Source: Opitutales bacterium (GTDB taxonomy: Bacteria > Verrucomicrobiota > Verrucomicrobiia > Opitutales > JABSRG01). From it: 34,702 nt of DNA. The notes beneath the pieces are model-generated. The model searched no databases, was not told the origin of the DNA, and was given only the letters and a program-made list of their open reading frames with translations. The position numbers and the translations under genes were made by a program. Positions 6,620-33,307 of the stretch are shown piece after piece. The stretch is taken from positions 1-34,702 of the forward strand of contig JBMYOQ010000045.1 in assembly GCA_049599475.1 (NCBI GenBank). Reading direction: 5' to 3'. Within the stretch, counting starts at the first letter, position 1; each line of letters opens with the position of its first letter.

Positions 6620-7648
6620 TTACTTTGAAGAGAAACGTGAAACGAACGCTGCCAGAGCCTTGCCCGGAGCCTTCCCAATTTCCATTTTGTGGATCAGTGC
6701 GCTGAGCTCGGCTCGAGCCTTGTTCAATGCGCGGCGATCCCACCACTGGATGAGGCTGACCGCGTGCTTCTCGATATCGTAGACACGAAGTGCCGCGTTG
6801 AGATATGGGTATGCGCCTTCCTTGAAGAAAATCAGGAAGCAGTAAGAGAAGAAGACCTCTGACCCCATTGCCCCAAGGTAGAGGTTGCTCAAGTCGATGA
6901 TAGAGGGCGGAGCGACTTCCATCGCGATTCCGGCTCCGAAATTTGGAGCAGGTGGGGCGATGGACGATGACTGCTCTACAATGTAGAAGAATTTGTTTGT
7001 GAGCTCGCGGACGAAAAGGGCAAATGAAGAAAAGCCGAACACGACAAGCAAGGCCTCAAGCGGTTGGCGGATAAATGAAAGAGGGCCGTGAGTTGCAAAC
7101 TTTACCCCGAAGGATCCCAGTGCTGCAATAAATGCAATGCCGACTGCGCTGAAAACGGATGCTGAAAGCGACTGGCTCTTCACGTAGAAGAAGGTAACGG
7201 TGAAGGTCGCTGTGATGATCGCAGTCATACCGCTTAGGAAGAAGGCTCGGGTCGCCATTGCGCTGCCCCAGAACTTATCAATAAGCACATCGGCCATTCC
7301 CTGGAGACGAATTTTTTCAAGCTTCGCGTCACGATCTTGAACCGCTTTTGACTTAGTCTCGATAATGCTGCGGCAGATTTCCATCCGCTTCCGTTCGTGA
7401 TCAGTCAAGCCACTAGCGCTCTCACGCATCATCTTAACCAGCTTGGGGTTCATGCCAGCGGCATTCATGAGCTCGCCGACAACGTGGGTGAGTAACTCAT
7501 GCCCTGCGGTGTGATCCTCGTAGGTGACGCGCGGCTCTGGATTTACATCCGGAACGAAGTTCTCAGGGACATAAAAATCGCGGGGATCTTTTGAAGTATT
7601 ACCGGAATTTGGGCCGTTTGAGGGCGTATTCGTATCAGAAGTAGTCAT
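6620..7648 (-). CDS. Hypothetical polytopic membrane protein (about 4 TM helices)
   Basis: Long ORF with four hydrophobic stretches; start uncertain (ATG 7648, or ATG 7468 if the promoter motif at 7552-7527 is used). Confidence 0.75.
   Translation of the reverse strand: MTTSDTNTPSNGPNSGNTSKDPRDFYVPENFVPDVNPEPRVTYEDHTAGHELLTHVVGELMNAAGMNPKLVKMMRESASGLTDHERKRMEICRSIIETKSKAVQDRDAKLEKIRLQGMADVLIDKFWGSAMATRAFFLSGMTAIITATFTVTFFYVKSQSLSASVFSAVGIAFIAALGSFGVKFATHGPLSFIRQPLEALLVVFGFSSFALFVRELTNKFFYIVEQSSSIAPPAPNFGAGIAMEVAPPSIIDLSNLYLGAMGSEVFFSYCFLIFFKEGAYPYLNAALRVYDIEKHAVSLIQWWDRRALNKARAELSALIHKMEIGKAPGKALAAFVSRFSSK
7527..7552 (-). promoter_or_regulatory. Putative ECF-type promoter CCGGAT-N17-CGT
   Basis: Minus strand CCGGAT gtaaatccagagccgcg CGT, pointing into the membrane/VWA genes. 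Confidence 0.5.
7602..7627 (+). promoter_or_regulatory. Putative ECF-type promoter, one-mismatch copy
   Basis: CCGGAA tttgggccgtttgaggg CGT, pointing toward the sigma factor operon. Confidence 0.35.
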
Positions 7649-7913
7649 ACAGGTTACAGGTTCGTGGTTACTGGAATCGAGACCTGAACCGTAGATGATC
7701 ACTCAAAATTGGGAAATCTTTATAAAGTTCCTAAATGTTTGATAGTAAATATATTAGGGATAAATTATTGCTGAAAATTGCGCACAAATTGTCCGCAAAT
7801 TGTGCTTCGCTGATTTTGCCAATTTTTACTCAACGTTGACAAAACGATTGCCCTTTGCGCATCGATTATTAGATATCAGTTTTCGAGTCTCCAACCCTAA
7901 CCTGGACCCTCTC

Positions 7914-8882
7914 ATGGCTACCTATCATTCTCGAAAAACCGTCCGCATGGAGCTGCTCCAACTCCTTGCCAAAGACTACAATGGAAATGTCTTTAAGTTC
8001 ATAACTTCGTTGGCACACGAGGATTGCCCTTCCGAAGGGACCCTTCGCTCCTCGCTAAAAACCGGAGTATTCACTGACCCAATGCTAAAGCGTTTGGCAA
8101 ACACGATTGGGATTGATTCATTCTTCTTGATCGACTTTGAGCACAAGTTACTCGGCTCACTGGAGGCGTATCGCGCCGCAGAGAAGCCTAATCGTAAGGC
8201 TGTAGAGAAAGACCCGAGTCTTCTCGAAAAAAACGATCTAGGCATTCCCCTGTGTGAACTCACTGATAAGGGCGTTGATAAAGAGAAGGAATTCGGTTTT
8301 GGAGCTGAAAACTTGGTCCATGGGGGCTTCCTCTATGATCATTGGAACGTAGACCACATCCTTGAGCGCGTTTTCAAAGCCGACATTGATGACGAAATCC
8401 GCATGCTCACTACTTTTCCGCTCTCACACCCACGTATTTTGCCACGACTTGAGCGCAAGCTCGAGCTGCAATCTCGTCGAGGCCGAAAAGATAAACGTTG
8501 CTCTGTGAAAGTGTTGCTGATGAACCCCTTTGAGGAAGAGCTCGTGTATGCGCGCTACAAGCTCCGTAGCGATTGCGAAAATCGAAGCGCCGAGATTATC
8601 TCAGTTGTTCAGAAGCTTCTCTGCATGCAAGAGCAATACAAGCACGTGTGCGATTTGGAGGTCCTCTTCTACACAAACATGCCAAACTGGAGCTATTTTC
8701 AGATCGGAGATAAAGCTATTTACGTCGGAAGTCTCCCCCCTCACGACGCCGCTGCCAATGGCCTAGTCAACCTCCTGACTGATAACACCTCTGACGCTTG
8801 GGACTTCGTTGAACGTGGTTTCCACACAGTCTATGGTTCCGCCGAAAATGCTGCAGATGTCATCAACGAAAACGCCGTCTAG
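7914..8882 (+). CDS. Putative regulator: HTH-like N-terminus with a DUF5919/PLD-like C-terminal domain
   Basis: ATG 7914 (MATYHS); PSEGTLRSSLKTG...MLKRLANTIGID resembles an XRE HTH; VKVLLMNP...FYTNMPNWSYFQIGDKAIYVG resembles DUF5919 by eye. Confidence 0.6.
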   Translation: MATYHSRKTVRMELLQLLAKDYNGNVFKFITSLAHEDCPSEGTLRSSLKTGVFTDPMLKRLANTIGIDSFFLIDFEHKLLGSLEAYRAAEKPNRKAVEKDPSLLEKNDLGIPLCELTDKGVDKEKEFGFGAENLVHGGFLYDHWNVDHILERVFKADIDDEIRMLTTFPLSHPRILPRLERKLELQSRRGRKDKRCSVKVLLMNPFEEELVYARYKLRSDCENRSAEIISVVQKLLCMQEQYKHVCDLEVLFYTNMPNWSYFQIGDKAIYVGSLPPHDAAANGLVNLLTDNTSDAWDFVERGFHTVYGSAENAADVINENAV

Positions 8883-8887
8883 TTTTT

Positions 8888-9418
8888 GTGCTATCTGAAG
8901 CCGACATCGATACACGCCGAATGCGATCAATCGAAGAAGCGATTGATCGCTACGGCGTTTATATCCAGAACTACCTGTTTGGGCTTACGAAAGACTGGCA
9001 TGCTGCGGAGGATATTGCGGACAAGCTTTGGGTGTTCGTATATGAGCGTTTTAAGGATGAGCAGATGCTCGAAATCCGCTTGATCAAGTTTAAGGCCTAC
9101 CAGCTCTTTTGTGAATACTATCGCAAGGTGAAGCGCTCGAAGCTGGATTTTACCGACGAGGTGCCGGAGCACACGTTTGGCACAACTAGCAAGGATCTCG
9201 GGACGCCTGAGTACGAGGAAGCCTTCAGGCAGAAATTCATGGAGGACTATGCGGATGTAGGTTTGAGCGAAAAACAGTTTCAAGCCCTCATCTGGAACTG
9301 CCGCGATGGCTATACCATTCTTGAAATCGCGGAGAGGCTCGGAGTCGGGAAATCAACGGTTGGCGACTGGATAAAGGACGCTAAGAATAAATTTGCGGAG
9401 TATTTTGCGAAAGCGTAG
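8888..9418 (+). CDS. RNA polymerase sigma-70 family, ECF-type sigma factor
   Basis: Region 2-like WHAAEDIADKLWV; region 4 HTH LSEKQFQAL...YTILEIAERLGVGKSTV; 176 aa. Confidence 0.88.
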   Translation: MLSEADIDTRRMRSIEEAIDRYGVYIQNYLFGLTKDWHAAEDIADKLWVFVYERFKDEQMLEIRLIKFKAYQLFCEYYRKVKRSKLDFTDEVPEHTFGTTSKDLGTPEYEEAFRQKFMEDYADVGLSEKQFQALIWNCRDGYTILEIAERLGVGKSTVGDWIKDAKNKFAEYFAKA

Positions 9419-9425
9419 AAATATT

Positions 9426-9614
9426 ATGATGCCACAGGATGACAAAGATCAGGGCCGCATCTCGGCAGACAACGTTCACGAGTTGGTTCGTGACTACGGT
9501 AAGCCGCTCGCACCGGAGCGTAAGCAATCGATCATGGAGAAGATCCGACAATCTAAAGGACGTTCGGAAGAAGCCGAGCGGGATAACGAGAAAGACCGCG
9601 ACTTCGGGCGTTGA
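9426..9614 (+). CDS. Small charged protein following the sigma gene (candidate anti-sigma)
   Basis: ATG 7 nt after the sigma stop; 62 aa ending ERDNEKDRDFGR; followed by a terminator. Confidence 0.65.
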   Translation: MMPQDDKDQGRISADNVHELVRDYGKPLAPERKQSIMEKIRQSKGRSEEAERDNEKDRDFGR

Positions 9615-9627
9615 TCTTTAAAAGCAA

Positions 9628-9657
9628 AAAAGCGCACCGCCTGAGCGATGCGCTTTT
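9628..9657. terminator. Bidirectional intrinsic terminator
   Basis: AAAAGCGCACCGC-ctga-GCGATGCGCTTTT between convergent genes. Confidence 0.75.
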
Positions 9658-9683
9658 CTTTAACCACTTCTCCGAAAGAACCC

Positions 9684-10016
9684 CTAGCGGCTGCGGGTCT
9701 CTGATTGCTCATTGAGCTGGCCAACGGGGAGCCCTTGGCCAATGCGGTGCTGCTCCAGATAGGCTTGCATGCCGATCCCCGTGTCCTTCTCGAAGATCTG
9801 ATTGATCTCCATGCGGGCTTGCGGCTCGGTGATGCCTTTTGCGGCGGCGTAACCCGTCGCCAGATCCTTGAGCGGATAGCGATAGGCTCCACGTTCATCG
9901 ATTGAGTCCTGGAGGCGCGTGACGAGCTTACGCTCGGCATTGCGCTCCACTGCATTCGATGCGACCTGGGCGAGTTGAGGTTTAGAGGCGGTTGCGGTGT
10001 CTTGTGTCTTTTCCAT
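9684..10016 (-). CDS. Hypothetical protein with an Arg-rich C-terminus
   Basis: ATG 10016 (MEKTQDT); 110 aa ending NEQSETRSR; promoter motif upstream and terminator downstream. Confidence 0.7.
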   Translation of the reverse strand: MEKTQDTATASKPQLAQVASNAVERNAERKLVTRLQDSIDERGAYRYPLKDLATGYAAAKGITEPQARMEINQIFEKDTGIGMQAYLEQHRIGQGLPVGQLNEQSETRSR

Positions 10017-10058
10017 GAGTTTTGAATTGTTTTGGTGCTTCATTGCACATGGGAAGTT

Positions 10059-10084
10059 ACGCCGGAACCTTTTGAAAAATCCGG
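10059..10084 (-). promoter_or_regulatory. Putative ECF-type promoter CCGGAT-N17-CGT
   Basis: Minus strand CCGGATTTTTcaaaaggttccgGCGT; shares CCGGATTTTT-N12-GCGT with 33282-33307. Confidence 0.65.
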
Positions 10085-10142
10085 TGTGCTTCGAAAAAAA
10101 ACGGTTCACTTTCTGAGAATGTGCATCCTTCTATAACAGGCT

Positions 10143-10172
10143 TTGACATTGAGATGCTATTTTCAGTAATCT
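10143..10172 (+). promoter_or_regulatory. Sigma70-type promoter of the defence operon
   Basis: TTGACA (10143-10148), 18 nt, TAATCT (10167-10172); the ATG starts at 10179. Confidence 0.55.
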
Positions 10173-10178
10173 CGTGGG

Positions 10179-10361
10179 ATGAATGTTTCCTTAACCGATC
10201 AGCTCGAAAACTTCGTTAATCGCTTAGTTGAGCGAGGTCGCTATCGTTCTGCGAGTGAGGTTGTGCGCGAAGGGCTTCGTCTGCTAGAAATACGGGAGTC
10301 GCAGCTTAAAGACAGCCGTGACGAAAACGGCAATAATCCAGAACAAGCCAACCAAGGGTAA
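10179..10361 (+). CDS. ParD-family ribbon-helix-helix antitoxin-like regulator (no partner toxin)
   Basis: MNVSLT...VERGRYRSASEVVREGLRLLE is the ParD/CC2985 family signature. Confidence 0.88.
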   Translation: MNVSLTDQLENFVNRLVERGRYRSASEVVREGLRLLEIRESQLKDSRDENGNNPEQANQG

Positions 10362-10369
10362 ACTCGACA

Positions 10370-13126
10370 ATGAACGCAGTCGAAATCGAAGAAGCAATAT
10401 CTCTTCTGGCCGAGCAGCCTTTTGAGGCTGACGCATTCCCGTATTCGTTTCTGGAAGCCTTTGGTAATAAGGCGACGACGATTAAGCGGCTTAGAAGCGG
10501 CTCTACCAATAAATCAGATGTGGGCGGCCTGTTGCAGCGCGGCAATATTCATATCAAAACATGTGCTGAAGGCGAAGTCGCCGCTACGCTCGATGCGCTT
10601 CGCGATAGCTCCGCGACCGCAAAGCAGAAAGTTCGCTTCATCCTATCAACAGATGGAATCGAATTGCAGGCTGAAGACATGGAAGGCGGCGATACCATTG
10701 CTTGTGATTATGCGGATTTTTCGAACCACTTTGTCTTCTTTCTCAAACTCGGTGGAATTAGTTTTGAGAAGCAAATTAAAGACGTAGAGTTAGATATTAA
10801 GGCGACCAGCCGACTGAACCGCCTCTATGTCGAGCTACTAAAAGATAACTTGGATTGGGGAACTGAAGCCCGCCGCCATGAGATGAATCATTTTATGGCA
10901 CGTCTCATTTTCTGCTTCTTCGCAGAAGACACGGATATTTTCAATGGAAACGATTTGTTCACCGCAACCGTTGAGCAAATGAGTGCACGAGATTCATCGA
11001 ACACCCATGAGGTAATTGCCGAGATTTTTCGCGCAATGGACACAAGAATTGAGGATCGCGCGACAGCAAACCTCCGCCGCTGGGCAGATGCTTTCCCTCT
11101 CGTTAATGGAGGCTTGTTCTCGGGTAGCTTAGAAGTTCCGAAATTTAGCAGAATTGCTCGTGCTTATCTCATACAGGTTGGCAAGTTGGATTGGACAAAA
11201 ATCAATCCCGATATATTCGGCTCGATGATTCAGGCCGTCGCGGATGATGAGGAGCGCGGAGCTCTTGGGATGCACTACACCAGTGTACCAAATATTTTGA
11301 AAGTGCTTAACCCGCTCTTTCTCGATGACCTTCGGGCTAAGCTTAAGGAAGCCGAAGGGAACGCACGAAAGCTACTCAATCTTCGCAACCGTATTTCGCG
11401 TATTCGCGTATTTGACCCTGCTTGTGGCTCTGGAAATTTTCTTGTCATAGCATACAAAGAAATGCGCGCGATTGAGGCGGAAATCAACTTACGTCGGGGA
11501 GAGCGCGAGCGCCGGACTGATATTCCACTCACCAACTTCCGTGGTATTGAACTTAGAGACTTCTCTGCCGAAATCGCACGTCTCGCACTCATTATTGCCG
11601 AGTACCAATGCGATGTCATGTATCGAGGTCAAAAAGAGGCACTTGCTGAATTTTTGCCCCTTGAAAAAGCTAATTGGATTACTTGTGGTAATGCGCTAAA
11701 GCTAGATTGGCTCAGTATTTGCCCCCCTACGGGCACGGCAGTAAAACATCGTTCCGAAGATTTGTTTGAGACGCCACTAAATCAGGCGGACATAGACTTT
11801 CGAAATGAAGGGGGCGAAACCTATATTTGTGGAAATCCTCCGTATTTGGGGTCAACATGGCAGTCAAAAGAACAAAAGTCGGAACTCCAGTGTATATTTG
11901 AGGACAAGACCAAAAATTGGAAGTCCCTAGACTATGTTGCTGGTTGGTTCATGAAAGCATCTGACTATGGTATTCATACCGAGTCTGCTGCGGCTTTTGT
12001 ATCCACGAACTCGATTTGTCAGGGGCAGCAGGTGCCAATACTTTGGCCACTCGTTTTTGCTTCAGGACATGAAATCACCTTTGCACACACCAATTTCAAA
12101 TGGGCAAATCTAGCGAGTCACAACGCTGGTGTAACAGTTTCGATCATAGGCATCTCAAGAAGCAAGAGTACTGTAAAGAAGCTCTTCTCAACGGGTGACG
12201 ATGGGGAAACCATAGCCAAGAACGTTTCTTACATAAACGCCTATTTGGTTTCTGGGGCCAATATTGTCATTCATAAATCAAGCGCACCAATTTCTCGAGA
12301 ACTCCCCAACGTCATACGTGGGAATATCCCTGTTGATGGTGGGAATTTATACCTCAATCCCGATGAGAAACTTAGATTTCAAGAGGTGCTGGAGGATGAT
12401 CAAATAAGACTATGTTTAGGATCGGATGAGTTTATATCAGGACACCAAAAATATTGTCTCTGGCTAAAAGACTATGACCTAAACGATCTTAAGAGAAAAA
12501 GCGTTGTTTCAGAAAGACTCGAACTTGTGAAGGAAATGCGAACGTCGAGTTCTAAGAAAGCAACGCAAACTGCTGCTTCGACTCCTCACCTATTCTTTGA
12601 ACGCAGGCAGGAAGGACACGAATCCATTATCGCTATTCCTGCTATCAGTTCTGAAAACAGAGAATTCTTGCCTGTGGGGCTCTTGCCCAGCGGAACTATA
12701 ATTACCGGAAAAATGTATGGTATCTTCGATGCTCCATTATGGAACATGGCCCTACTCGCTTCGCGTCTTCATTGGGTTTGGATTGGTGCTGTCTGTGTTC
12801 GCCTAGAAATGCGTTTTTCATACTCAAACACTCTTGGATGGAACACCTTTCCCGTTCCGAGTTTAACCGAGTCTAACAAAGCAGACCTGACGCATTCCGC
12901 AGAAGAATTACTTCTGGCTAGAGAAGCGCATTTTCCAGCTACTATTGCTGAACTTTATGATCCTAAAAAGATGCCTGAAAATCTTAGACAGGCGCATAAG
13001 CGCAACGACGAAGTTTTAGAGCGTATTTATATAGGTCGTCGTTTCAAGAACGATACCGAGCGACTGGAAAAGCTCTTTGATCTTTATACCAAAATGACCG
13101 CCACCAAAAAGGTTGGAGAAAATTAA
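10370..13126 (+). CDS. yeeA: MmeI/YeeA-like N6-adenine DNA methyltransferase with target recognition domain
   Basis: RLIFCFFAEDT, LGMHYTS, motif I FDPACGSGNF, motif IV GNPPYLG and C-terminal YSNTLGWNTFPVP. Confidence 0.9.
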   Translation: MNAVEIEEAISLLAEQPFEADAFPYSFLEAFGNKATTIKRLRSGSTNKSDVGGLLQRGNIHIKTCAEGEVAATLDALRDSSATAKQKVRFILSTDGIELQAEDMEGGDTIACDYADFSNHFVFFLKLGGISFEKQIKDVELDIKATSRLNRLYVELLKDNLDWGTEARRHEMNHFMARLIFCFFAEDTDIFNGNDLFTATVEQMSARDSSNTHEVIAEIFRAMDTRIEDRATANLRRWADAFPLVNGGLFSGSLEVPKFSRIARAYLIQVGKLDWTKINPDIFGSMIQAVADDEERGALGMHYTSVPNILKVLNPLFLDDLRAKLKEAEGNARKLLNLRNRISRIRVFDPACGSGNFLVIAYKEMRAIEAEINLRRGERERRTDIPLTNFRGIELRDFSAEIARLALIIAEYQCDVMYRGQKEALAEFLPLEKANWITCGNALKLDWLSICPPTGTAVKHRSEDLFETPLNQADIDFRNEGGETYICGNPPYLGSTWQSKEQKSELQCIFEDKTKNWKSLDYVAGWFMKASDYGIHTESAAAFVSTNSICQGQQVPILWPLVFASGHEITFAHTNFKWANLASHNAGVTVSIIGISRSKSTVKKLFSTGDDGETIAKNVSYINAYLVSGANIVIHKSSAPISRELPNVIRGNIPVDGGNLYLNPDEKLRFQEVLEDDQIRLCLGSDEFISGHQKYCLWLKDYDLNDLKRKSVVSERLELVKEMRTSSSKKATQTAASTPHLFFERRQEGHESIIAIPAISSENREFLPVGLLPSGTIITGKMYGIFDAPLWNMALLASRLHWVWIGAVCVRLEMRFSYSNTLGWNTFPVPSLTESNKADLTHSAEELLLAREAHFPATIAELYDPKKMPENLRQAHKRNDEVLERIYIGRRFKNDTERLEKLFDLYTKMTATKKVGEN

Positions 13127-13145
13127 CTTTGAAAGGAATTCCAAA

Positions 13146-16398: not shown

Positions 16399-16399
16399 C

Positions 16400-21024: not shown

Positions 21025-21050
21025 CTGGATCAATGAGGGGCTCAAAGCGT
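21025..21050 (+). promoter_or_regulatory. Putative ECF-type promoter, one-mismatch copy
   Basis: CTGGAT caatgaggggctcaaag CGT, upstream of the 21140-22514 operon. Confidence 0.45.
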
Positions 21051-21665: not shown

Positions 21666-21695
21666 CGCTGTCAAAACGAGTGAAAGGAGAAACTC

Positions 21696-21944: not shown

Positions 21945-21957
21945 CAGTGATCCCAAT

Positions 21958-21992
21958 GCGAAGCGATGGCCCTCGCGGGCTCGTCGCTTCGC
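21958..21992. other. GC-rich hairpin before radC
   Basis: GCGAAGCGA...TCGCTTCGC arms with an inner GCCC/GGGC stem. Confidence 0.5.
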
Positions 21993-22016
21993 GTCTCTAA
22001 AAGAAAGGAAGATGTT

Positions 22017-25043: not shown

Positions 25044-25138
25044 GACCTGATTAGAGAATAACGTGCGGTTTTTCCCGCCGATCGACTTAGCGCAAAATTT
25101 TGCGTGTCAGATAACATTTCTACTAAGCAGGTTTTTTT

Positions 25139-26437
25139 ATGCATGGATATAATTTATTACTAACAACCCTACTGATTTTTTATGCATCGATAGTTCGAGC
25201 TGAGCCTTCAACTGCGCTTAACCTTACGAGTCCGGAAGCTGTCGCTTGGGCTTTGGAGAAAAATCAGTCAATGCAGGCAGCACGATCTACTATAGAAGCA
25301 GCTCATGCGTATTCCGAATATGCGGGCAGATTAGAAAATCCCGAGCTAAATCTTGAATATGCCTCAGATTGGGCATTCAACAATGAAGGAGAACGGGCAT
25401 ATTCAATAGGGATCGAACAACGTTTTCCGGTAACTCATCGGCTCAAGCTTTTGAAAAATGTCTCCGCGCTTGAGATCCAATTAGCCGAGAAAGAATTTCG
25501 CAATCAACAGCGTTTATTTATTCGTGATATTGAGCTGGCTGTAGATGAGTTATCGAGCTTGGAAGCGCGCCTTCAATTACTGAATGAAGTTATCGATCTC
25601 CAAAATACCTTAACCAAGTTTCTGGAGAGGAAAATCGAAGAAGGAGAAGCATCGACACTCGATTTGAACCAAGTGCAGGTTGCGCGTTTTGCAGTCAAAC
25701 AGGACATTCAAAATCTAACCAAACAACGCGATATCGTGGTGGCACAACTACGCATTTTGCTCGGGGTTGCGAAAGACGTTGATCTTCAGATTTCATCAGT
25801 ATCACCCGAACTGACTGTCCTTCCTCCTATGCAAGACTTTGACAGCACTCAATTGATCACGCACCCAGAATATCAATACAAAACGCTTCTTGCAGAAATA
25901 GCTCAAGACCGAACTTCTCTGGCTAAGGCAGAACGATGGGCCGACATTGCTGTAGAGGTCTTTTTCGAGGAGGAACGTGCTGTGGATGAACCTGTCGGGC
26001 GCGAAACCGACCGATTCTTCGGCATTGGAGTTTCAATACCTTTACCGTTAAATGACAATAACCGTGGAGAAATTGAAGCTAGCAGACTGCGCGAAAGAAA
26101 AATCTATCACGAAACCGCAGCCCTAAAACTTCGCCTAGAAAACGAAGCAAATTCTCTAAAACTCAATGCAGAGGCGACTTATAAGCAGTTGTACGACTAC
26201 AAGAAGAGCGCAGTCGAACTTGTTGAAAAGAACCTGGAAGAGATCAATCGCGCCTACGCCGCCGGTCAGGTCGATTTAGGAGAAGTCTTTCGTGTGCAAG
26301 AACAACGATTGGAAATCAAAACAGCTCAAGTTGCTCTTCGGCATGAGCTTAATCAAATACTGATCAGGTGGCGAGCTGCGACGGCAGCGAACTTCCCCAA
26401 TAAAAAAACTGAGGAAATTTCCAATGAGACTAAGTAG
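25139..26437 (+). CDS. TolC/CzcC-family outer membrane efflux protein
   Basis: Signal peptide, NPELNL, GIGVSIPLPL..NRGEI and AYAAG; operon position. Confidence 0.9.
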   Translation: MHGYNLLLTTLLIFYASIVRAEPSTALNLTSPEAVAWALEKNQSMQAARSTIEAAHAYSEYAGRLENPELNLEYASDWAFNNEGERAYSIGIEQRFPVTHRLKLLKNVSALEIQLAEKEFRNQQRLFIRDIELAVDELSSLEARLQLLNEVIDLQNTLTKFLERKIEEGEASTLDLNQVQVARFAVKQDIQNLTKQRDIVVAQLRILLGVAKDVDLQISSVSPELTVLPPMQDFDSTQLITHPEYQYKTLLAEIAQDRTSLAKAERWADIAVEVFFEEERAVDEPVGRETDRFFGIGVSIPLPLNDNNRGEIEASRLRERKIYHETAALKLRLENEANSLKLNAEATYKQLYDYKKSAVELVEKNLEEINRAYAAGQVDLGEVFRVQEQRLEIKTAQVALRHELNQILIRWRAATAANFPNKKTEEISNETK

Positions 26438-27575
26438 CCTTTTCTTACTTTATATTTTTACAATTTCGGCAGCACATGCGTCCGATGATCTTCGTGCTCA
26501 AAATACAATCATCCTAAATGAAACGAGTGTTCGTAATCTTCAAATACAGACGGAAGAAGTGGAAGAACGCGACTTTGAGAAGACCGTTTTTGCGATTGGC
26601 CGCATTGAAGAAATTCCAGCTAGTCGCTCCGTTTTATCTTCTCGAATTGCTGGACGCATTATTGATCTTAAAGCCTTTGTTGGAGACACAGTTGATGCAG
26701 GCGACATTCTCGCCACTGTCGAAAGTCGACAGCCCGGCGACCCGCCTCCAAGCGTATCATTGAAGGCTCCTCAAGGCGGTGTGGTTGTGGCATCTCACGT
26801 CCGCTTGGGACAACCCGTTGAACCTTCAGCCGAGCTACTCGATATCTCGGATCGGTCAAAACTATGGGCAGTTGCAAAAATCCCAGAACAGGAGGCGGCA
26901 AACACAGATATTGGCTCTCTGGCTTATATTCATATTCCAGCTTTGGGCGAAGAACAAATAGAAGCCAAGCTGACCCGTTTCGGTGTTGAAGCAGATCGCC
27001 AGGCCGGCGCCATTGAGGGTATCTTTGAGTTGGATAATTCTGCCGGAAAATTACGTCCGGGCATGCGTGCAGAGTTCTCCATTGTCCTTGAAACGAAGCC
27101 CTTTGTTCTCTCAATCCCGCGCACTGCGATTCAGGGCGATCCGGCAAACCGAAAAGTCTTTGTAAAGGATTTTGAACTACCGAATGCGTTTGTGCGTGCG
27201 CCCGTCGTGCTTGGTGAGGAAAACGACCAGTATGTTGAGGTGATCAATGGTTTGTTTCCCGGCGACGAAGTCGTAACTCAAGGATCCTACGCGCTTAGTT
27301 TCACAGGTAGTGGCTCTGGCATGTCATTGAAGGAAGCACTGGATGCAGCGCACGGCCACGAGCACAATGAGGATGGTTCTGAGATCACTGATGAGCAGAT
27401 TGAGGAAGCAGAGGATCATGGCAATCACGACCACGATCACGAAGCCGGAAATGAGGCATCCCTTAGCAAACTGCTGATGATTTACGCAGGAGTAATGACC
27501 CTTTTGTTCCTGATCGCTGCACAAATTCTTTGGAACCGACGCCAGCATAAAATGGAGACAGACAATGCTGAATAA
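26424..27575 (+). CDS. RND periplasmic adaptor (CzcB/CusB family) with a His-rich tail and C-terminal TM helix
   Basis: VGDTVDAGD, LRPGM and VEVINGLFPGDEVVTQG; HGHEH...HDHDH. Confidence 0.9.
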   Translation: MRLSSLFLLYIFTISAAHASDDLRAQNTIILNETSVRNLQIQTEEVEERDFEKTVFAIGRIEEIPASRSVLSSRIAGRIIDLKAFVGDTVDAGDILATVESRQPGDPPPSVSLKAPQGGVVVASHVRLGQPVEPSAELLDISDRSKLWAVAKIPEQEAANTDIGSLAYIHIPALGEEQIEAKLTRFGVEADRQAGAIEGIFELDNSAGKLRPGMRAEFSIVLETKPFVLSIPRTAIQGDPANRKVFVKDFELPNAFVRAPVVLGEENDQYVEVINGLFPGDEVVTQGSYALSFTGSGSGMSLKEALDAAHGHEHNEDGSEITDEQIEEAEDHGNHDHDHEAGNEASLSKLLMIYAGVMTLLFLIAAQILWNRRQHKMETDNAE

Positions 27576-30500
27576 GCTCATTCAGTTTTCGCTAACGCAT
27601 AGGCCACTCATTTTGGCCCTTGCTCTGGTGGTTTTCATCTGGGGACTGAAAACTGCACGCGAACTCCCCGTCGAAGTATTACCGGACTTAACTAAACCTA
27701 CAGTTACGATCCTAACTGAGGCCTCAGGCTTTTCACCTGAAGAAGTGGAAACTCTGGTGACAATCCCTCTGGAGAATTCTCTTATGGGAGTTACAGGGGT
27801 CACGCGACTGCGCTCAGTCAATGACATCAGTTTGTCATTGGTATTCATCGAATTTGAGTGGGGAACGGATATCTATCAGGCACGTCAATTCGTCCAAGAA
27901 CGGCTAGTGGGAGTCAGCGAATCTCTGCCAGAAGGCGTGAATCCTTACATGACCCCTGTCTCCTCTTTGATGGGAGATATCATGCTAGTCGGTCTTGTTG
28001 ATCCCACAGGTGCGACTGAACCCAGGGATTTGCGAACGCTGGCAGATTGGACTGTTGCACGCCGCTTGCAGTCGATCCCGGGCATTGCCGAAGTGTTGTC
28101 CATGGGCGGCGGCGTCAAGCAAGTCCAAGTGCAGCCCAACCCCGATAAAATGTTGGCGATGAGGATTCTACACGAAGATCTACGTGATGCGACCGCTAAT
28201 GCTGTTAGTAATAGCACGGGTGGTTTTTTAACTGAGTCCTCTCAGGAAATCATGGTCCGCAATCTGGCGATGACTTCTGACCTTGAAGCTATCGGTAATA
28301 CGGTCGTCACTCACTTAAATGATCGTCCTGTTCGTATCAAAGATGTCGCTACAGTCATCTGGGATGTCGAGCCGATGCGTGGTGACGCTGGCATGGGAAG
28401 TAAGCTGCTTGGCGACCATATCGCGAAAGGCTATCCGGGAGTAATTCTGAGCGTTAAAAAATCGCCGGGCTTCGACACTCTAGCGCTCACTGACAGAGTC
28501 GAAGAGGCGTTAGAAGAATTACAAGTTACGCTTCCCGAAGGAACCAAGCTGCTCCCAATCTATCGCCAGTCAGATTTCATTAATCTCGCCGTCGGTAACT
28601 TGAAAGAAGCCCTCATCGAAGGAGCGGTCATGGTGGCCGTAGTCCTGTTTCTTTTCCTGCTCAACGTTCGCATAACACTCATCACATTGACTGCTATACC
28701 GCTCTCTTTGGGAATGACTGTGCTGGTTTTTGGTTCTTTCGGCTTAAGCGTAAACTCCATGACACTTGGAGGTTTGGCTGTCGCCATCGGAATGGTGGTC
28801 GATGATGCGATTGTTGACGTAGAAAATGTTTTCCGCCGATTACGTGAAAATGCATTGCTAGCGAAGCCACACAACAAACTAGAGGTTATTGCGAAGGCCT
28901 CTGCTGAGGTTCGTTCATCTATTCTTTATGCAACAGTGCTTATCATCCTAGTATTCTTGCCTCTTATGGCTTTGAGCGGAGTCGAAGGGCGACTTTTCAC
29001 ACCCATAGCCATCGCAACAATTGTCAGTATGGCTGCTTCGTTTCTCGTCTCATTGACAGTTATCCCAGTGCTGAGTTCTTATCTGCTGAAACCGAAGGGA
29101 GACAATAAGCACGCCGATGGGAGGATAGAGCGCTTCGTCAAAAAAGCATTCAAAGTCACATGGCTAAAGTTCTCTCTCTCGCAGCCCTTCATGGTGCTTC
29201 TTGGGACTGCTTTTTTAGTCATACTAGCGGCATTATCTTTCACTCAAATGGGCGGTAACTTTCTACCCGCATTTAGGGAGCCCACTGTTCTTGTAGCCAC
29301 AACAACTGCTCCGGGAACATCTCTGAAGCAAACGCGTGAAATTGCTGATACAGCACAAGATTTACTTCTGCAAATCCCAGAGATTGAAACGGTTGGCTAT
29401 CGCGTTGGCCGCGCAGAGCGTGGGGATCATGTCGTTCCTGTTTCAACGGTCGAATTCGATGTAGAGTTTGTCCAGAACTATGAACGCAGCCGTAGTGATG
29501 TGCTCGAAGATATTCGAAGTGCCATGCAGACGATCCCTGGCACTTTCAGCGCATTGAGCGGCCCTCTGGCGGATCGTATTGGCCACATGCTTAGCGGGGT
29601 ATCCGCGAAAGTCGCAGTCAAAGTCTTCGGACCTGATCTCGACGAACTGCGTCGCATTGGCACCAAAATCGCAGAGATTGCACGTGAAATACCGGGTATG
29701 GAGGAAGCCCGTATCGAGCAACAGGCTCCTATCCCACAACTGCGCATCGAAATAGATCGCAAACGGGCAATGGCTTATGGCGTCACCCCGGGTGAACTCA
29801 ATGCAGAACTCTCTGCACTTATGGGAGGAGAAGCGGTTGCCGAGATCTACGAAGACCAACGCGTCTATGATCTAGTGCTAAGGCTTCCTCTCGAATGGCG
29901 CGAGTCACCACGAAGACTATCACAACTCTACATCGACACGCAGAGTGGTCAGCGAATACCACTGAGTTATGTTGCAAACATCCGCCATGCGACTGGCCCA
30001 AACAATATACTGCGAGAGAACACCATCCGCCGATTTGTAGTCTCAATTAATCCAACGGTCGATGACTTGAATGCAGCCGTTGAAACACTTCAGGACAAAG
30101 TCGCCTCCGAAATGCAATTGCCAGAAGGATACACCATTTCCTTTGAAGGTGAATATGAAGCGCAAGCGCAAGCTAAACGCACGATCCTTATCACCTCGGC
30201 GATTGTTCTACTGGTTATCTCATTCCTACTCTACAGCTATTTCCGAAGTTTTGTCTTTGTTGTATTAGTCCTAACAATTGTGCCTATTTCACTCGTCGGC
30301 AGCATCTTCCTTACTGCGGCCACGCTTGATAATATAAGCATCGCTACGCTCGTCGGCTTTATCGCAGTGAGTGGCATTGCGGCTCGTAATAACATCATGC
30401 TCATCTCCCACTACTTACATTTGATGCGTCATGAAGGTGAGCGATTTACCCGTAAGATGGTCGAACGCGGCACGCAAGAACGTCTCATTCCGATTCTGAT

Positions 30501-30714
30501 GACTGCGATATCAGCAGGCTTAGCACTTGTGCCTTTGCTTTTGGCAACTGAGGAACCCGGCAAAGAAATCCTCAATCCAATCGCGGTCGTCATCGTCGGC
30601 GGTCTTGTTACCTCCACTTTGCTCGGCCTTGGTGTCACACCGGCGATCTTTTATTCATTCTGCCGACACTCGGCCGAAAAGTCAGTTAAACTGAAATCCA
30701 CTGCGTCAGAATAA
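27565..30714 (+). CDS. Heavy-metal RND permease (CusA/CzcA family)
   Basis: 1049 aa; LPVEVLPDL, AIGMVVDDAIVDVEN and ERLIPILMTA. Confidence 0.95.
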   Translation: MLNKLIQFSLTHRPLILALALVVFIWGLKTARELPVEVLPDLTKPTVTILTEASGFSPEEVETLVTIPLENSLMGVTGVTRLRSVNDISLSLVFIEFEWGTDIYQARQFVQERLVGVSESLPEGVNPYMTPVSSLMGDIMLVGLVDPTGATEPRDLRTLADWTVARRLQSIPGIAEVLSMGGGVKQVQVQPNPDKMLAMRILHEDLRDATANAVSNSTGGFLTESSQEIMVRNLAMTSDLEAIGNTVVTHLNDRPVRIKDVATVIWDVEPMRGDAGMGSKLLGDHIAKGYPGVILSVKKSPGFDTLALTDRVEEALEELQVTLPEGTKLLPIYRQSDFINLAVGNLKEALIEGAVMVAVVLFLFLLNVRITLITLTAIPLSLGMTVLVFGSFGLSVNSMTLGGLAVAIGMVVDDAIVDVENVFRRLRENALLAKPHNKLEVIAKASAEVRSSILYATVLIILVFLPLMALSGVEGRLFTPIAIATIVSMAASFLVSLTVIPVLSSYLLKPKGDNKHADGRIERFVKKAFKVTWLKFSLSQPFMVLLGTAFLVILAALSFTQMGGNFLPAFREPTVLVATTTAPGTSLKQTREIADTAQDLLLQIPEIETVGYRVGRAERGDHVVPVSTVEFDVEFVQNYERSRSDVLEDIRSAMQTIPGTFSALSGPLADRIGHMLSGVSAKVAVKVFGPDLDELRRIGTKIAEIAREIPGMEEARIEQQAPIPQLRIEIDRKRAMAYGVTPGELNAELSALMGGEAVAEIYEDQRVYDLVLRLPLEWRESPRRLSQLYIDTQSGQRIPLSYVANIRHATGPNNILRENTIRRFVVSINPTVDDLNAAVETLQDKVASEMQLPEGYTISFEGEYEAQAQAKRTILITSAIVLLVISFLLYSYFRSFVFVVLVLTIVPISLVGSIFLTAATLDNISIATLVGFIAVSGIAARNNIMLISHYLHLMRHEGERFTRKMVERGTQERLIPILMTAISAGLALVPLLLATEEPGKEILNPIAVVIVGGLVTSTLLGLGVTPAIFYSFCRHSAEKSVKLKSTASE

Positions 30715-30741
30715 TTTCAACCAAATAGAAAGCACTGTACC

Positions 30742-31308
30742 ATGAAATATAAAACATCCCTAGTCACCGCGCTAATCGCTGCTTGTATTCTAATCACAAA
30801 TGCATCAAATGCAGAAAATAATGACCACGATCATTCCACACATGATCATTCACAGCACGACCATGGGGCGCACGACGACCATGAGCATAATGAACATGCC
30901 GGGCATGATCATCATGAAAAACAAGTGGGGCCAAACGGCGGCCGCTTAATTACATCAATTGAGCCTCACCTGGAATTTTTTGTGACTGAACAAGGCTTTG
31001 TCCAGATCACGTTTTTAAATGAACTCAATAAACCCATTGCGCGTAAAGAGCAGATTGTTTCGTTAATTGGGGGTGACCGTCAGGAGCCATTTAGGCTTAC
31101 ATTTAAAGCTAAAGAAAAATCGCTAATTTCCACTGAAACTCTACCTAAGGGTAACAACTTGCCGATCATCCTTTCTATTAAACTAGATGAAAATTCTAAA
31201 ACAGTCAGAGAGAGGTTTAACCTTAATCTAAGTGAATGTCCAACCTGTGACTACAAGGAATATGCATGCACCTGTGAGCATCACGACCACGAAGGACATG
31301 ATCACTGA
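30742..31308 (+). CDS. Exported His-rich metal-binding protein
   Basis: Signal peptide; long His/Asp tract; GPNGGR; C-terminal CPTCDYKEYACTCEHHDH. Confidence 0.85.
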   Translation: MKYKTSLVTALIAACILITNASNAENNDHDHSTHDHSQHDHGAHDDHEHNEHAGHDHHEKQVGPNGGRLITSIEPHLEFFVTEQGFVQITFLNELNKPIARKEQIVSLIGGDRQEPFRLTFKAKEKSLISTETLPKGNNLPIILSIKLDENSKTVRERFNLNLSECPTCDYKEYACTCEHHDHEGHDH

Positions 31309-31379: not shown

Positions 31380-31424
31380 GCGAGATGTGTTTTTGTCGGA
31401 CAAAAACCACTACGTTACATCTCG
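31380..31424 (-). other. Putative oriT (MOBP-like) with predicted nic at 31381/31380 on the minus strand
   Basis: Perfect inverted repeat GTTTTTGTC-g-GACAAAAAC (31389-31407), flanked by CGAGATGT/ACATCTCG; upstream of mobC. Confidence 0.7.
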
Positions 31425-31563
31425 GAAAGGGAGGGCTCTGCCCCCCGTTTCATCCCCCCGCTAGGAGTGGGCTAGCCCCTCCTGTAACCACCCCAAACGG
31501 GTGACCCCGTAAACCCCTTAACTGAAACTCATAGGAGTTTTCTTTGCTTAAATCGCACGGTGG

Positions 31564-31589
31564 CCGGATCGCCGCATGCCTTCAATCGT
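31564..31589 (+). promoter_or_regulatory. Putative ECF-type promoter CCGGAT-N17-CGT
   Basis: CCGGAT cgccgcatgccttcaat CGT, 18 nt before the mobC ATG. Confidence 0.6.
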
Positions 31590-31607: not shown

Positions 31608-31952
31608 ATGGCCCGCCCTAAGAAATCCATTCAAGCTCGCAAAACGCGCAAGCTCTGCTACCGCCTTTCTGAAGCGGAGTATTTGAAGCTGTCCCATAAG
31701 GCGGCTTCGATAGGTGTGAGCGTTAACGAGCTTGCACGTCGTTTAGCGCTTGATCGTTCAGATGCTCTGAACGTCACGGTAAATGAGCGCGTCGACCCTG
31801 CCCTCATCCAGCAGCTGCATCACATAGGCATAAACCTCAATCAAACAGTGAAGCGCTTTCACATGACGGGCCGCAGCCCGAAATATCTGGATGCCATGTG
31901 TGAGCGGATCGATGCCTTGATCGATGAAGCACAATCTCAGGAGAAAATCTAA
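31608..31952 (+). CDS. mobC: Relaxosome accessory protein MobC
   Basis: RHH-type RLSEAEY...SVNELAR and LHHIGINLNQ; stop overlaps the relaxase start. Confidence 0.9.
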   Translation: MARPKKSIQARKTRKLCYRLSEAEYLKLSHKAASIGVSVNELARRLALDRSDALNVTVNERVDPALIQQLHHIGINLNQTVKRFHMTGRSPKYLDAMCERIDALIDEAQSQEKI

Positions 31953-33265
31953 TGGTCCCCGTGATCGCCGGAATGGGAACGTCCTTCAAAGGGGCGTTCC
32001 TCTATTATTGCCATGACAAAGATGCGAGAACGACCATGCGCGTGGCATGGACCGAAACGCGGAACCTGATGGCGGATACGGTAGATAAGGCTTGGCGCTT
32101 CATGGCTTACACAGCCAAGAGCCATGAACGGCTAAAACAAGCGGCAGGCGTTAAGGCGACTGGGCGCAAATTAGAAAAGCCCGTCTTCACCTATTCTTTG
32201 AGTTGGCATCCCGAGCAGTCGCCGACTAAGCGCGAAATGCTGCAAGCTGCCGATGACTCCTTAAAGGCTCTCGGGCTGGAAGAGCATCAGGTTATTATCT
32301 CGTGTCACAGGGATGAGCCTCATCCTCACGTGCATTTGATCGTCAACCGCACGCATCCGCTCACGGGCATTGCTGCAAAGCTCAGTCGCTCAAAACGCAA
32401 GCTCTCGGATTTTGCACGGGTATTTCAGCGCAAAGAAGGCACGGACTATTGCCCCGCTCGTGAGGAGAATTACCAGAAGCGAAAAGCTGGGAAAAGAACC
32501 AAGCATGGTGATCCAGTTATCGTGAATGCATGGGCGAATAGTGATAGCGGAAAAGAGTTCGTGGCTGCGCTCGAAGCAGAGGGTTACGCGCTGGCAAACG
32601 GTAATCGACGTCTTGTCGTCGTTGATCGCTACGGAAAATCGATCAATCCCGTTCGCCAACTTGAAGGCGTAAAAGCAAAAGAGTTCAATGCCTTGCTCAG
32701 TGATTTAGATCTGAATTCTCTGCCCGATGCGTCCACTCTTCAGAGGTCAGCGAAAAACGCTGAAAAAGAAAAACGAGCCGCCGCGCGACGAAAACGTGAG
32801 GAGCTTGAGGAGCGCAAAGCTCTGATGCTGGCAGCTCTTCAAGATCGCCAGATCCAGGAACGCGCAGAGGTTTTCAACAAGCATCATACACGAATAGAAA
32901 AAGCGAAGGATGAACTTTCGGCTTACTATTCATTGAGCAAGCACAAGCGCGATATCGAGAACCTCAATACACGCCTCAATAACACTGGAGTATTTGGCCG
33001 TTTGCTCGGAAAACATCAAAAAATTGCCGATGAAAAGGCCGCGAAGCTGAAAACGCTGAATAATGCCCAAATGCGCTTCAATGAGGCGATAGGATCGCTT
33101 GAGAAGAAACGTGACCGCGAACTAGAGCAGCTCTCGCAGAAGCAATCTGAGCAGGTCAGGAAAATATCTCTTGAATTGGATGCTCAGTTCTTTGAGCGAG
33201 AGCATGCCCCTCAAAGGCGTAGTCGAAATCAAAATACAGCATCCCGTGAAATACGGGGGCCGTAG
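31952..33265 (+). CDS. Relaxase, MOBP-like HUH
   Basis: G.SFKGAFLYY, YSLSWHP and HRDEPHPHVHLIVN; coiled-coil C-terminus. Confidence 0.93.
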   Translation: MVPVIAGMGTSFKGAFLYYCHDKDARTTMRVAWTETRNLMADTVDKAWRFMAYTAKSHERLKQAAGVKATGRKLEKPVFTYSLSWHPEQSPTKREMLQAADDSLKALGLEEHQVIISCHRDEPHPHVHLIVNRTHPLTGIAAKLSRSKRKLSDFARVFQRKEGTDYCPAREENYQKRKAGKRTKHGDPVIVNAWANSDSGKEFVAALEAEGYALANGNRRLVVVDRYGKSINPVRQLEGVKAKEFNALLSDLDLNSLPDASTLQRSAKNAEKEKRAAARRKREELEERKALMLAALQDRQIQERAEVFNKHHTRIEKAKDELSAYYSLSKHKRDIENLNTRLNNTGVFGRLLGKHQKIADEKAAKLKTLNNAQMRFNEAIGSLEKKRDRELEQLSQKQSEQVRKISLELDAQFFEREHAPQRRSRNQNTASREIRGP

Positions 33266-33281
33266 GGTTTTTTATTAAGGG

Positions 33282-33307
33282 CCGGATTTTTGAGGCTGCC
33301 AGAGCGT
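33282..33307 (+). promoter_or_regulatory. Putative ECF-type promoter CCGGAT-N17-CGT
   Basis: CCGGATTTTTgaggctgccagaGCGT, 10 nt before the excisionase ATG. Confidence 0.65.

Follow-up and report, generated by a model that had tools for sequence, protein, structure and literature searches.

Does a mobile element carry, in its own sigma factor, the switch that turns on its excision and mobilisation? The question is raised by a 34,702-bp contig of a marine Opitutales bacterium (GenBank assembly GCA_049599475.1, contig JBMYOQ010000045.1), hereafter called the window, which is the whole of contig C45 in a 4.68-Mb genome of 146 contigs (genome G000). So far as this contig reveals, the window represents an integrative element of the mobilisable type, with genes for a relaxase, the relaxase accessory protein MobC, a coupling protein, an excisionase (Xis) and an integrase (Int). 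It also encodes an extracytoplasmic function (ECF) sigma factor, and a preliminary description of the sequence proposed that this protein acts as a master switch through a bipartite motif, CCGGAT-N17-CGT, found ahead of excision, mobilisation and backbone operons. Our analyses favour a narrower version, to which we give odds of roughly seven in ten: the motif copies ahead of xis-int, mobC-relaxase and a conserved gene for a 110-residue protein appear to be promoter-like sites that are read by the element's own sigma factor, and would form a positive switch for excision and mobilisation. The relevant sites and genes are as follows.

33282-33307, plus strand: Pxis, an exact CCGGAT-N17-CGT; the xis ATG lies 10 nt after CGT
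33318-33515, plus strand: xis, an AlpA/HTH_17 excisionase-like gene of 65 codons (Pfam HTH_17 4.7e-09, Phage_AlpA 1e-06)
33541-34695, plus strand: tyrosine integrase gene, 25 nt after xis (Pfam Phage_integrase 2.2e-22)
31564-31589, plus strand: PmobC, an exact CCGGAT-N17-CGTAAT, 18 nt before the mobC ATG
31608-31952, plus strand: mobC/nikA-like relaxase accessory gene, 114 residues from ATG 31608 (Pfam NikA-like 9.8e-12; MbpA and MobA matches)
31952-33265, plus strand: relaxase gene, MobA/VirD2-like (Pfam Relaxase 1.4e-22)
10059-10084, minus strand: P110, the promoter-like site of the 110-residue gene, an exact CCGGAT-N17-CGTAAC
9684-10016, minus strand: conserved gene for the 110-residue protein, with an in-frame ATG at 10043, 15 nt after CGT
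7602-7627, plus strand: CCGGAA-N17-CGTATTC, candidate autoregulatory promoter of the operon of a 360-residue open reading frame (ORF), the sigma gene and a small gene
7800-8882, plus strand: orphan ORF ahead of the sigma gene, start uncertain (TTG 7800 or ATG 7914)
8888-9418, plus strand: ECF-type sigma factor gene, 176 residues
9426-9614, plus strand: 62-residue ORF, 8 nt after the sigma stop
9630-9655, both strands: terminator-like hairpins between the convergent sigma operon and 110-residue gene
7527-7552, minus strand: fourth exact copy, in sense orientation inside a 342-residue ORF; function unsupported
21025-21050, plus strand: one-mismatch copy (CTGGAT), 89 nt before the operon of a small ORF, DUF6362 and RadC; unsupported

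A pattern scan of the window found the four exact copies listed above, exactly where they had first been noticed, and both of the one-mismatch copies that had been singled out with them. Dinucleotide shuffles of the window (n = 100) contain 0.13 exact copies on average and at most 2, and the rate in the genome outside the window (5.6 exact copies per Mb) leads to an expectation of 0.19 per window. When up to one mismatch is allowed, 15 copies are present (the four exact ones included) versus 5.9 expected, which is a mild enrichment. The whole genome holds 30 exact copies versus 25 for a reversed control. The four exact copies are no evidence by themselves, because the pattern was defined post hoc and some such pattern is expected by chance; with about 4^9 (approximately 260,000) possible 6+3 patterns for each spacer, the window count alone is not decisive. 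The significance of the motif rests on independent tests in relatives, namely a shuffled-motif test and an unbiased word count.

To find relatives, we used the sigma protein as query against 401 genomes from the order and 401 from the class. Orthologues with 32-44% identity were found in 13 further genomes (G281, G004, G214, G373, G115 with two loci, G134, G168, G079, G178 with two partial loci, G668, G661, G681 and G645), giving about 15 verrucomicrobial loci, and G200 has a more distant match. Searches of the flanking regions with tblastn place these sigma genes in elements that carry MobC-relaxase, coupling protein, Xis-Int, ArdA and RadC genes as well as those for the 110-residue protein and for proteins of 219 and 82 residues, and sigma and xis are often divergent neighbours. 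Outside the window, 17 regions (250 nt + 20) that precede xis, mobC and 110-residue gene orthologues served as the test set. The motif as defined in the window (at most one mismatch, spacer 17) occurs in 7 of these 17 regions (8 hits), whereas 300 composition-matched shuffled motifs occur in 0.45 regions on average and never in more than 3 (the background rate of the motif is 1.45e-4 per strand-nt). The motif is conserved, in other words, in elements with orthologous sigma factors. The same boxes at spacers of 14, 15, 16, 18, 19 and 20 are found in 1, 0, 0, 0, 0 and 0 regions, respectively. On the opposite strand two regions match, and in the first G115 locus (G115a) the match is the promoter-like CCGGAC-N17-CGTAATA of the divergent sigma gene.

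An unbiased count of all 4-mer/spacer/4-mer combinations in the last 150 nt of the 17 regions places CGGA-N18-CGTA first (6 of 17; maximum 3 in 30 shuffles), and ranks two to seven are taken by the same motif in other registers. Such motif discovery on relatives had been proposed at the outset, and the bipartite motif is its top signal. Fifteen sites yield the family consensus YCGG(A/T)(T/C)-N17-CGT(A)(T)(C/T), in which the boxes are kept and the spacer sequences are unrelated between elements. These comparisons support CCGGAT-N17-CGT as a conserved, strand-specific, bipartite element with a fixed spacing of 17 upstream of xis-int, mobC-relaxase and the 110-residue gene. Two smaller details of the window sites had also been pointed out. 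The CCGGATTTTT shared by two of them is correct as read, and so is the G that precedes CGT in five of six; this G is not conserved, and we dropped it from the motif because the column before CGT in the 15 sites holds A3 C0 G6 T6. Each element has a single variant of the -35 box, which changes from one element to another (AT in the window, AC in G168 and G115a, AA in G079, TT in G668 and G681).

Pxis, PmobC and P110 are well supported. All three copies are intergenic and each points into the next gene. The box precedes xis in G004 (exact, with the ATG 11 nt on), in G115a and G168 (as CCGGAC) and in G079 (as CCGTAA). It occupies the same place relative to mobC, 15-18 nt before the ATG, in G004, G168, G668, G681 and G054:C123, again with unrelated spacers. 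It also lies before the orthologous 110-residue gene in G004, G168, G668, G681 and G178:C124. The CGT of P110 ends 42 nt before the annotated ATG, or 15 nt before the in-frame ATG at 10043. Orthologues of the 110-residue protein are 29-43% identical, and their genes in G668 and G681 are directly upstream of the sigma gene on the same strand. The protein itself has no PDB sequence match, Pfam or PHROG family or significant fold match; Atlas suggestions of DUF3849 (0.81) and of AraC-like models are below the usable level.

The site at 7602-7627 is probably the autoregulatory promoter of the sigma operon, since chance would supply only about 0.002 hits scoring 14 or more within the 300 nt that precede this operon (background 58 in 9.29 million strand positions) and since relatives show the layout of sigma autoregulation. 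It is the top match in the window (14.2) of a matrix built from 12 sites outside the window. Among relatives, the motif immediately precedes the sigma gene in G115a, G168, G661 and G645 and lies upstream of the 110-residue/sigma operon in G668 and G681, and was not seen before the sigma gene in G281, G004, the second G115 locus (G115b) or G134.

Other copies fared less well. The fourth exact copy had been read as a promoter leading into membrane and VWA genes, but it lies within a coding frame in sense orientation and has no support from relatives. Because the 342-residue ORF is gene-like in this region (ATG 7648; the codon-usage score is gene-like from about 7635 downwards, with the start judged on codon usage only), the copy is not situated before an operon. 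No VWA match, nor any other Pfam, NCBIfam or PHROG family, was found among the ORFs at 3464-7648, and the 342-residue ORF has no homologue except itself. With the non-window matrix this copy scores 11.0, and a threshold of 11 gives 3.8 expected hits per window; it is indistinguishable from a chance fourth copy (0.19 expected). The copy at 21025-21050, which had been assigned to the radC operon, has T at position 2 where 15 of 15 sites have C, scores below 11, and is overlapped by a different repeat family. RadC operons of G079 and G168 do carry the motif. The overlapping repeats, which comprise GTCCTG/GTCCTC direct repeats and a recurring TTTGTCCTCGTTT(C/G)TG word (20965-21030, 18964-18985 and 20595-20613), look like another regulator's site ahead of the small-ORF/DUF6362/RadC operon.

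The idea that the motif precedes backbone operons in general did not hold, as the coupling-protein block is without a convincing site in the window, G178 and G004. Window scans do confirm that the defence and metal cargo genes lack upstream copies. These genes had been described as preceded by sigma70-like boxes instead, and such boxes are visible by eye (TTGACA-N18-TATTTA upstream of 24579 and TTGACA-N18-TAATCT upstream of parD), but neither site is listed in the output of a formal sigma-70 scan of the window.

The product of 8888-9418 belongs to the ECF-type (group 4) sigma factors, and its initial designation as a sigma factor is borne out by both a profile match and its predicted fold. It passes the Pfam cut-off for Sigma70_r4_2 (28.6 bits versus 25.7) and has no Sigma70_r2 match. 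A profile of 14 family members (A1) matches Mycobacterium tuberculosis SigH (8.3e-09, profile positions 36-177), SigE and Bacillus subtilis SigW over nearly the full length. The AlphaFold2 model, with a predicted local distance difference test score (pLDDT) of 82.6, has helical domains at residues 4-81 and 107-175 joined by a disordered linker (84-103), and its top Foldseek matches are all ECF sigma factors (SigL, SigE, SigW, SigH and SigK; 160-196 columns, probability 1.00). PF04542 is among the precomputed annotations of some family members. When 5.8 billion proteins were searched with the profile in a word-limited mode, at least 34 clusters of the family were returned, all with E-values of at most 2e-50, whose source names, where given, are the generic 'RNA polymerase sigma factor' of Cerasicoccus, Opitutus and Luteolibacter. 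A search with the single sequence found one fragment with 93% identity, and a scan of genome contigs with the sigma factor alone gave one weak, unrelated match. The analysis shows a small verrucomicrobial sigma family that travels with mobilisable-type elements.

A region-4 helix with the sequence DAITIAR pairs with CCGGAC in G168 and G115a. This covariation between the sigma factor and the -35 variant is suggestive; these two elements are closely related, and so few cases do not allow a covariation test. The G645 sigma gene (L056, G645:C53, approximately 9860-10449) has its N-terminal 25-30 residues in another frame, which reflects a frameshift or an assembly error.

How far the motif extends beyond these operons was assessed with a scanning matrix built from the 15 sites, three of which are from the window. 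At the sigma gene, sites lie 14-15 nt ahead of the start in G115a, G168 and G661, and one also precedes the gene in G645. Others precede RadC in G079, the 82-residue/ArdA/RadC set in G168 and xis-like HTH_17 genes in G668 and G661. In G214 and G134 the matrix site lies before a TrwC (MOBF) relaxase-helicase (Pfam TrwC 9e-66 in G214, and a like protein in G134) that is unrelated to the relaxase of the window. The motif always faces the gene that follows it, and in most cases 9-30 nt separate its end from the start codon: counted from CGT to the start, the distance is 10 and 11 nt for xis (window and G004), 14-15 nt for sigma (G115a, G168 and G661), 15-18 nt for mobC, 11 nt for RadC (G079), and 9 and 14 nt for the xis-like genes (G661 and G668). 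In ten sigma-bearing loci that did not contribute to the matrix (328,678 bp), 9 sites score 16 or more versus 0.42 expected, an expectation based on the 6 such sites in the 4.64 Mb of the genome outside C45 (1.29 per Mb). Four relaxase-bearing elements that lack the sigma gene (146,260 bp) have no site at this level.

Host chromosomes show no comparable signal. Of the 64 matrix hits scoring 14 or more in the genome that carries the window, 8 are intergenic (12.5%, versus 10.5% non-coding DNA), and two of these 8 are in the window. For relatives, the pattern YCGGWY-N17-CGTAT (which excludes the G079 variant CCGGAA) gives genome-wide totals similar to a reversed control; the matches within 20 kb at the element number 3 of 11 in G661, 3 of 13 in G134, 4 of 14 in G168 and 2 of 4 in G668. 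The preliminary description had named equal frequency in host promoters as an outcome that would tell against it, and no enrichment of the motif in host chromosomes was found.

The sigma gene does not stand alone. A small ORF encoding 52-75 residues follows the sigma stop, a few nucleotides away or overlapping, in each of the 14 elements whose flank is intact (the window included), and this conserved gene is new here. The 62-residue protein of the window has no family, no transmembrane segment and no sigma-region family in profile scans. When its complex with the sigma factor was modelled with both alignments, the score was 0.81 (0.77-0.83 in three runs) versus 0.03 for the best control; the mark used for this score is reached by 116 of 157 solved complexes and by 2 of 215 mismatched pairs. 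Between runs, at least 85% of the contacts recur, the pLDDT of the partner is 75, and the modelled partner contacts sigma residues 8-71 and 134-173, that is, both domains. The 62-residue product is predicted from these models to be an anti-sigma-like clamp on both sigma domains. Known anti-sigma factors bind both domains likewise (PDB 5wuq, 1or7, 5uxx), and the high score may partly reflect likeness to known sigma/anti-sigma structures. An Atlas lead for the protein, which serves as a lead only, is DUF4316 (score 0.92; present in 41% of one cluster's members).

These features can be assembled into a mechanism. The sigma factor would join host core RNA polymerase, and transcription would start approximately 10 nt after CGT. 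A CGT-type -10 box at a 16-17-nt spacer is a hallmark of ECF promoters, in which CGT lies at about -12 to -10, and the geometry of the motif (two boxes, a CGT-type second box and a fixed spacer of 17) fits this layout. If CGT is at about -12 to -10 in the window as well, leaderless mRNAs or leaders of a few nucleotides would follow: a leaderless or near-leaderless xis-int mRNA is predicted from Pxis, and very short leaders would be expected on mobC-relaxase. The sigma factor likely drives its own operon from 7602-7627, as its orthologues would do directly in several relatives, to give positive feedback, and the 62-residue product would hold it inactive until a signal arrives.

Several results weigh against this mechanism, and some of them concern the window itself. 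The matrix from 12 non-window sites gives 7 hits in the window versus 3.8 expected at threshold 11, which is no overall enrichment; it scores the xis and 110-residue sites at 11.9 and the mobC site below 9. The weakness of this matrix is attributable to few training sites and an element-specific -35 variant, and the mobC site is one that rests on conserved position rather than on matrix score. A CGT at -12 to -10 would place the start point before mobC inside a conserved GAGGTG that resembles a ribosome-binding site. The candidate autoregulatory site lies inside the opposite-strand 342-residue ORF, 170-290 nt from the next start. For the sigma factor, Sigma70_r4_2 is the only profile to pass its curated cut-off, and NCBIfam ECF models match over the whole length at sub-threshold scores (TIGR02937 22.5 versus 42.9).

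Other points come from relatives. No motif site was found in the sigma-bearing loci G281 and G115b, and the xis and mobC regions of G645 have CCGG(T/A)(T/A)...CTTATA instead, with spacers of 17 and 15. The converse was examined in relaxase homologues without a linked sigma orthologue (G168:C10, G045:C15, G054:C24, G045:C2 and G054:C123). G168:C10 and G045:C15 (30 and 40 kb) have no site scoring 13.4 or more, and G054:C24 has only TCGGAT-N17-CGCATCT, with CGC for CGT, 10 nt before a xis-like gene. A site scoring 13.9 lies 13 nt before mobC in G045:C2, which has no detectable sigma orthologue, and CCGGAT-N17-CGTATTG lies 18 nt before mobC in G054:C123, a close relative whose relaxase is broken and whose contig measures 10 kb; the G054 genome yielded no sigma orthologue. 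Moreover, Xis, Int and MobC co-occur with the motif too, such that co-occurrence alone cannot single out the sigma factor. The association between motif and sigma factor is strong but not exclusive on these comparisons, and sites without a sigma gene may be relics, parts of incompletely assembled elements, or sites for which the sigma factor is supplied in trans.

Such observations give some weight to a reading in which the boxes are operator half-sites for another protein of the element (the Xis/AlpA helix-turn-helix protein, the MobC/NikA ribbon-helix-helix protein or the 110-residue protein) and the sigma factor has other targets. Xis, Int and MobC accompany the motif as regularly as the sigma factor does, motif-like sites exist without a sigma orthologue in the three G054 and G045 contigs just described, and the boxes lie near start codons, where the one at mobC overlaps the apparent ribosome-binding site; the 110-residue protein has only faint AraC-like helix-turn-helix resemblances (E >0.3). 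However, the two boxes are unlike one another and form neither a repeat nor a palindrome, and they have the geometry of a promoter. The 17-nt spacer is rigid (other spacers occur in 0-1 of 17 regions), the orientation to the downstream gene is constant, and the CGTAT box resembles an ECF -10. The motif is also present before the TrwC relaxase in elements without a MobC match, and sigma genes themselves carry it. We consider operator half-sites an unlikely explanation, albeit the best placed of the alternatives.

Less probable again is a reading in which the boxes are promoters for an ECF sigma factor encoded by the host, with the element's own sigma factor serving otherwise or being redundant. 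Verrucomicrobial genomes have many ECF sigma factors (weak matches to the window sigma factor occur in 42 of 401), sites without a linked sigma gene exist, and the top-scoring site of the genome that carries the window is in a czc-like operon beside a chromosomal ECF sigma gene. Yet the motif shows neither enrichment nor intergenic bias in host chromosomes, it follows the element across families and into a second order of hosts, and its -35 variant tracks the element rather than host kinship. The presence of the motif at the element sigma genes is what ECF autoregulation predicts. The czc-like operon belongs to a region of contig C13 (G000:C13:19893-29902) in which CCGGAT-N17-CGT occurs in five exact copies within 10 kb, each on the minus strand. 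They are mostly inside genes of a chromosomal czc-like resistance-nodulation-division (RND) efflux cluster, which adjoins the chromosomal ECF sigma gene (25539-26114) and a possible anti-sigma gene, and the copy at 20935 is the best matrix match of the whole genome (19.3).

The remaining alternative, that the window copies are a post-hoc pattern without function, draws on the choice of the motif after reading, one-mismatch copies near chance level, two of six listed sites in coding frames and the lack of overall enrichment with the leave-window-out matrix, but we regard it as very improbable given the nine high-scoring sites in non-training loci, the first rank in the unbiased search and the recurrence at orthologous positions, the last two of which contradict it for the three main sites.

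The preferred reading, a positive switch run by the element's own sigma factor, has its closest known counterpart in Tn916. According to a recent preprint, orf7 and orf8 of Tn916 encode a two-subunit sigma factor, Sig7-Sig8, that activates Psig7 with self-feedback and is required for excision via xis expression; one major promoter produces a transcript that reaches xis-int and, once the element is circular, the conjugation genes as well (bioRxiv 10.64898/2026.10.01.756105). On that account, the two systems would share an element-encoded, group-4-like sigma factor with self-feedback, action on a promoter of the element and a requirement in excision by way of xis. Tn916 has a split sigma factor and is a self-transmissible element of Firmicutes, whereas the window has a single-chain, two-domain sigma factor on a verrucomicrobial, mobilisable-type element. 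Its promoter-like sites would be dispersed at xis, the relaxase operon, a small conserved gene and the sigma operon, and its predicted anti-sigma partner is a further difference from what the preprint's passages describe. A split sigma factor of the Tn916 type was considered for the window and rejected, as the single chain holds both domains and the 62-residue neighbour has no sigma-region family.

A second comparison is with ECF sigma/anti-sigma pairs such as SigW-RsiW, SigE-RseA and EcfG-NepR. These likewise combine a two-domain sigma factor, a -35 box and a CGT-type -10 box at 16-17 nt, autoregulation and a co-transcribed inhibitor on both sigma domains, the last of which is predicted for the window. 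The common ECF -35 is of the GGAAC type, whereas that of the window family is YCGG(A/T)(T/C). The partner of 52-75 residues, without a transmembrane segment or known family, is also different, and the putative regulon consists of excision and transfer genes of a mobile element rather than an envelope or stress response.

Element-level positive regulators of another kind are SetCD of SXT/R391 and the regulators of ICEclc, which are reportedly transcription activators that work with host sigma factors. They too would be one regulator acting on dispersed promoters before xis and transfer operons, but the window element would itself supply the specificity factor. Host RpoS acts on ICEclc, and this is the single mention of a sigma factor in the part seen of a review on elements that are both integrative and conjugative (ICEs; PMC5812530). 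In the corresponding part of a review of integrative and mobilisable elements, sigma-70 appears only as cargo, and a Sphingopyxis ICE preprint treats sigma and anti-sigma genes as variable cargo. SigN of the B. subtilis plasmid pBS32 shows positive feedback, a DNA-damage trigger and cell death, as cited in the Tn916 preprint (bioRxiv 10.64898/2026.10.01.756105). It resembles the window sigma factor, so far as that passage goes, in its location on a mobile replicon and its positive feedback, and differs in being plasmid-borne; the passage states no link of SigN to excision or relaxase promoters. Our literature search, which did not extend to subscription journals, found no description of an ECF sigma factor that runs the excision and relaxase promoters of an integrative element, and no paper on such elements in Verrucomicrobia.

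The way in which integrated elements decide to excise and transfer is known for few model families and mostly involves repressors or activators; a switch in the form of an element-encoded sigma factor is a recent finding, made for Tn916 in Firmicutes. The window would extend this principle to an unrelated, little-studied phylum and to a mobilisable island with different wiring, in which a single-chain ECF sigma factor, a tiny predicted anti-sigma factor and dispersed promoters at xis and relaxase are combined. The set of sigma factor, promoter and inhibitor is compact and could be of use for orthogonal gene control, and YCGG(A/T)(T/C)-N17-CGTAT beside a gene of this sigma family might serve as a signature to find and delimit islands in metagenomes. 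More speculatively, verrucomicrobial islands might share a portable switch made of an ECF sigma factor, a minimal anti-sigma factor of about 60 residues and no known family, positive feedback and private promoters for leaderless excisionase and relaxase mRNAs, and the sigma-less G054:C24, G054:C123 and G045:C2 would be driven in trans by the sigma factor of a co-resident island. We hold this wider proposal to be possible at best; if it is true, trans activation of sigma-less islands would amount to parasitism at the level of promoter recognition.

The rest of the window was annotated with Pfam, NCBIfam and PHROG profile matches over 32 ORFs, and contains the following features.

451-1965, plus strand: Fic-domain protein
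1975-3477, minus strand: TraG/VirD4-type coupling protein
3464-7648, minus strand: five ORFs without any family
from 10179, plus strand: ParD-like gene and MmeI-type enzyme
up to 19428, plus strand: helicase, T5orf172, SIR2 and HerA genes
19643-20164, plus strand: ArdA
20217-20876, minus strand: 219-residue ORF
21140-22514, plus strand: small ORF, DUF6362, 82-residue ORF and RadC
22805-24445, plus strand: serine recombinase
24579-31308, plus strand: metal-type RND efflux set
31380-31460, plus strand: putative origin of transfer (oriT)-like block, made up of an inverted repeat and CCCCCCGTTTCATCCCCCC, upstream of PmobC

No VirB4 or other mating-pore family was recognised among the 32 ORFs, five of which (3464-7648) are without a family, on a contig that is perhaps a partial element. 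No Rfam family was found in the window. The orphan ORF at 7800-8882 has no family match, and no homologue of it was found in the elements of relatives. The xis product also matches the TIGR01764 excise model (2.7e-06) at 27.6 bits, with a curated cut-off of 28.8, and the contig ends 7 nt past the integrase stop. Sequence resembling the oriT-like block is conserved upstream of mobC in six elements (G004, G168, G645, G668 and G681 besides the window), where an inverted repeat around AGATGTG...CATCT is followed by CCCCCCGTT(T/G)CATCCCCCC.

ORFs of 485, 111, 159 and 201 residues (3464-6746) beside the coupling-protein gene are conserved backbone genes, which are found with the coupling protein in G178 (C105 and C124) and partly in G681 and G004. 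The defence cargo at 10179-19428 (MmeI-type enzyme, helicase and T5orf172) is 55-72% identical to G004:C17:1063-11265, and ArdA is also present in G004; SIR2-HerA is an addition in the window relative to the G004 element. The MmeI gene is closely preceded by the ParD-like antitoxin gene, for which no toxin gene could be recognised.

Among sequencing runs, a search for those that contain the window listed no RNA run. Contigs of two DNA sequencing runs, aligned to window positions 1-20000, were uninformative on the motif, and one of these runs gave only short identical pieces there. Contigs of the DNA runs diverge from the window at positions 52, 53 and 148 with differing continuations. Two tandem 48-nt units (85% alike) lie at positions 5-100, at the left end of the contig, and this end may mark a boundary of the element at an attachment site or repeat. 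The genome that carries the window yielded no further sigma orthologue. The same genome has a second, related element fragment (G000:C41:30019-36343), in which the Fic gene is 67% identical to that of the window, the relaxase homologue has an internal stop, and mobC lies at the contig end.

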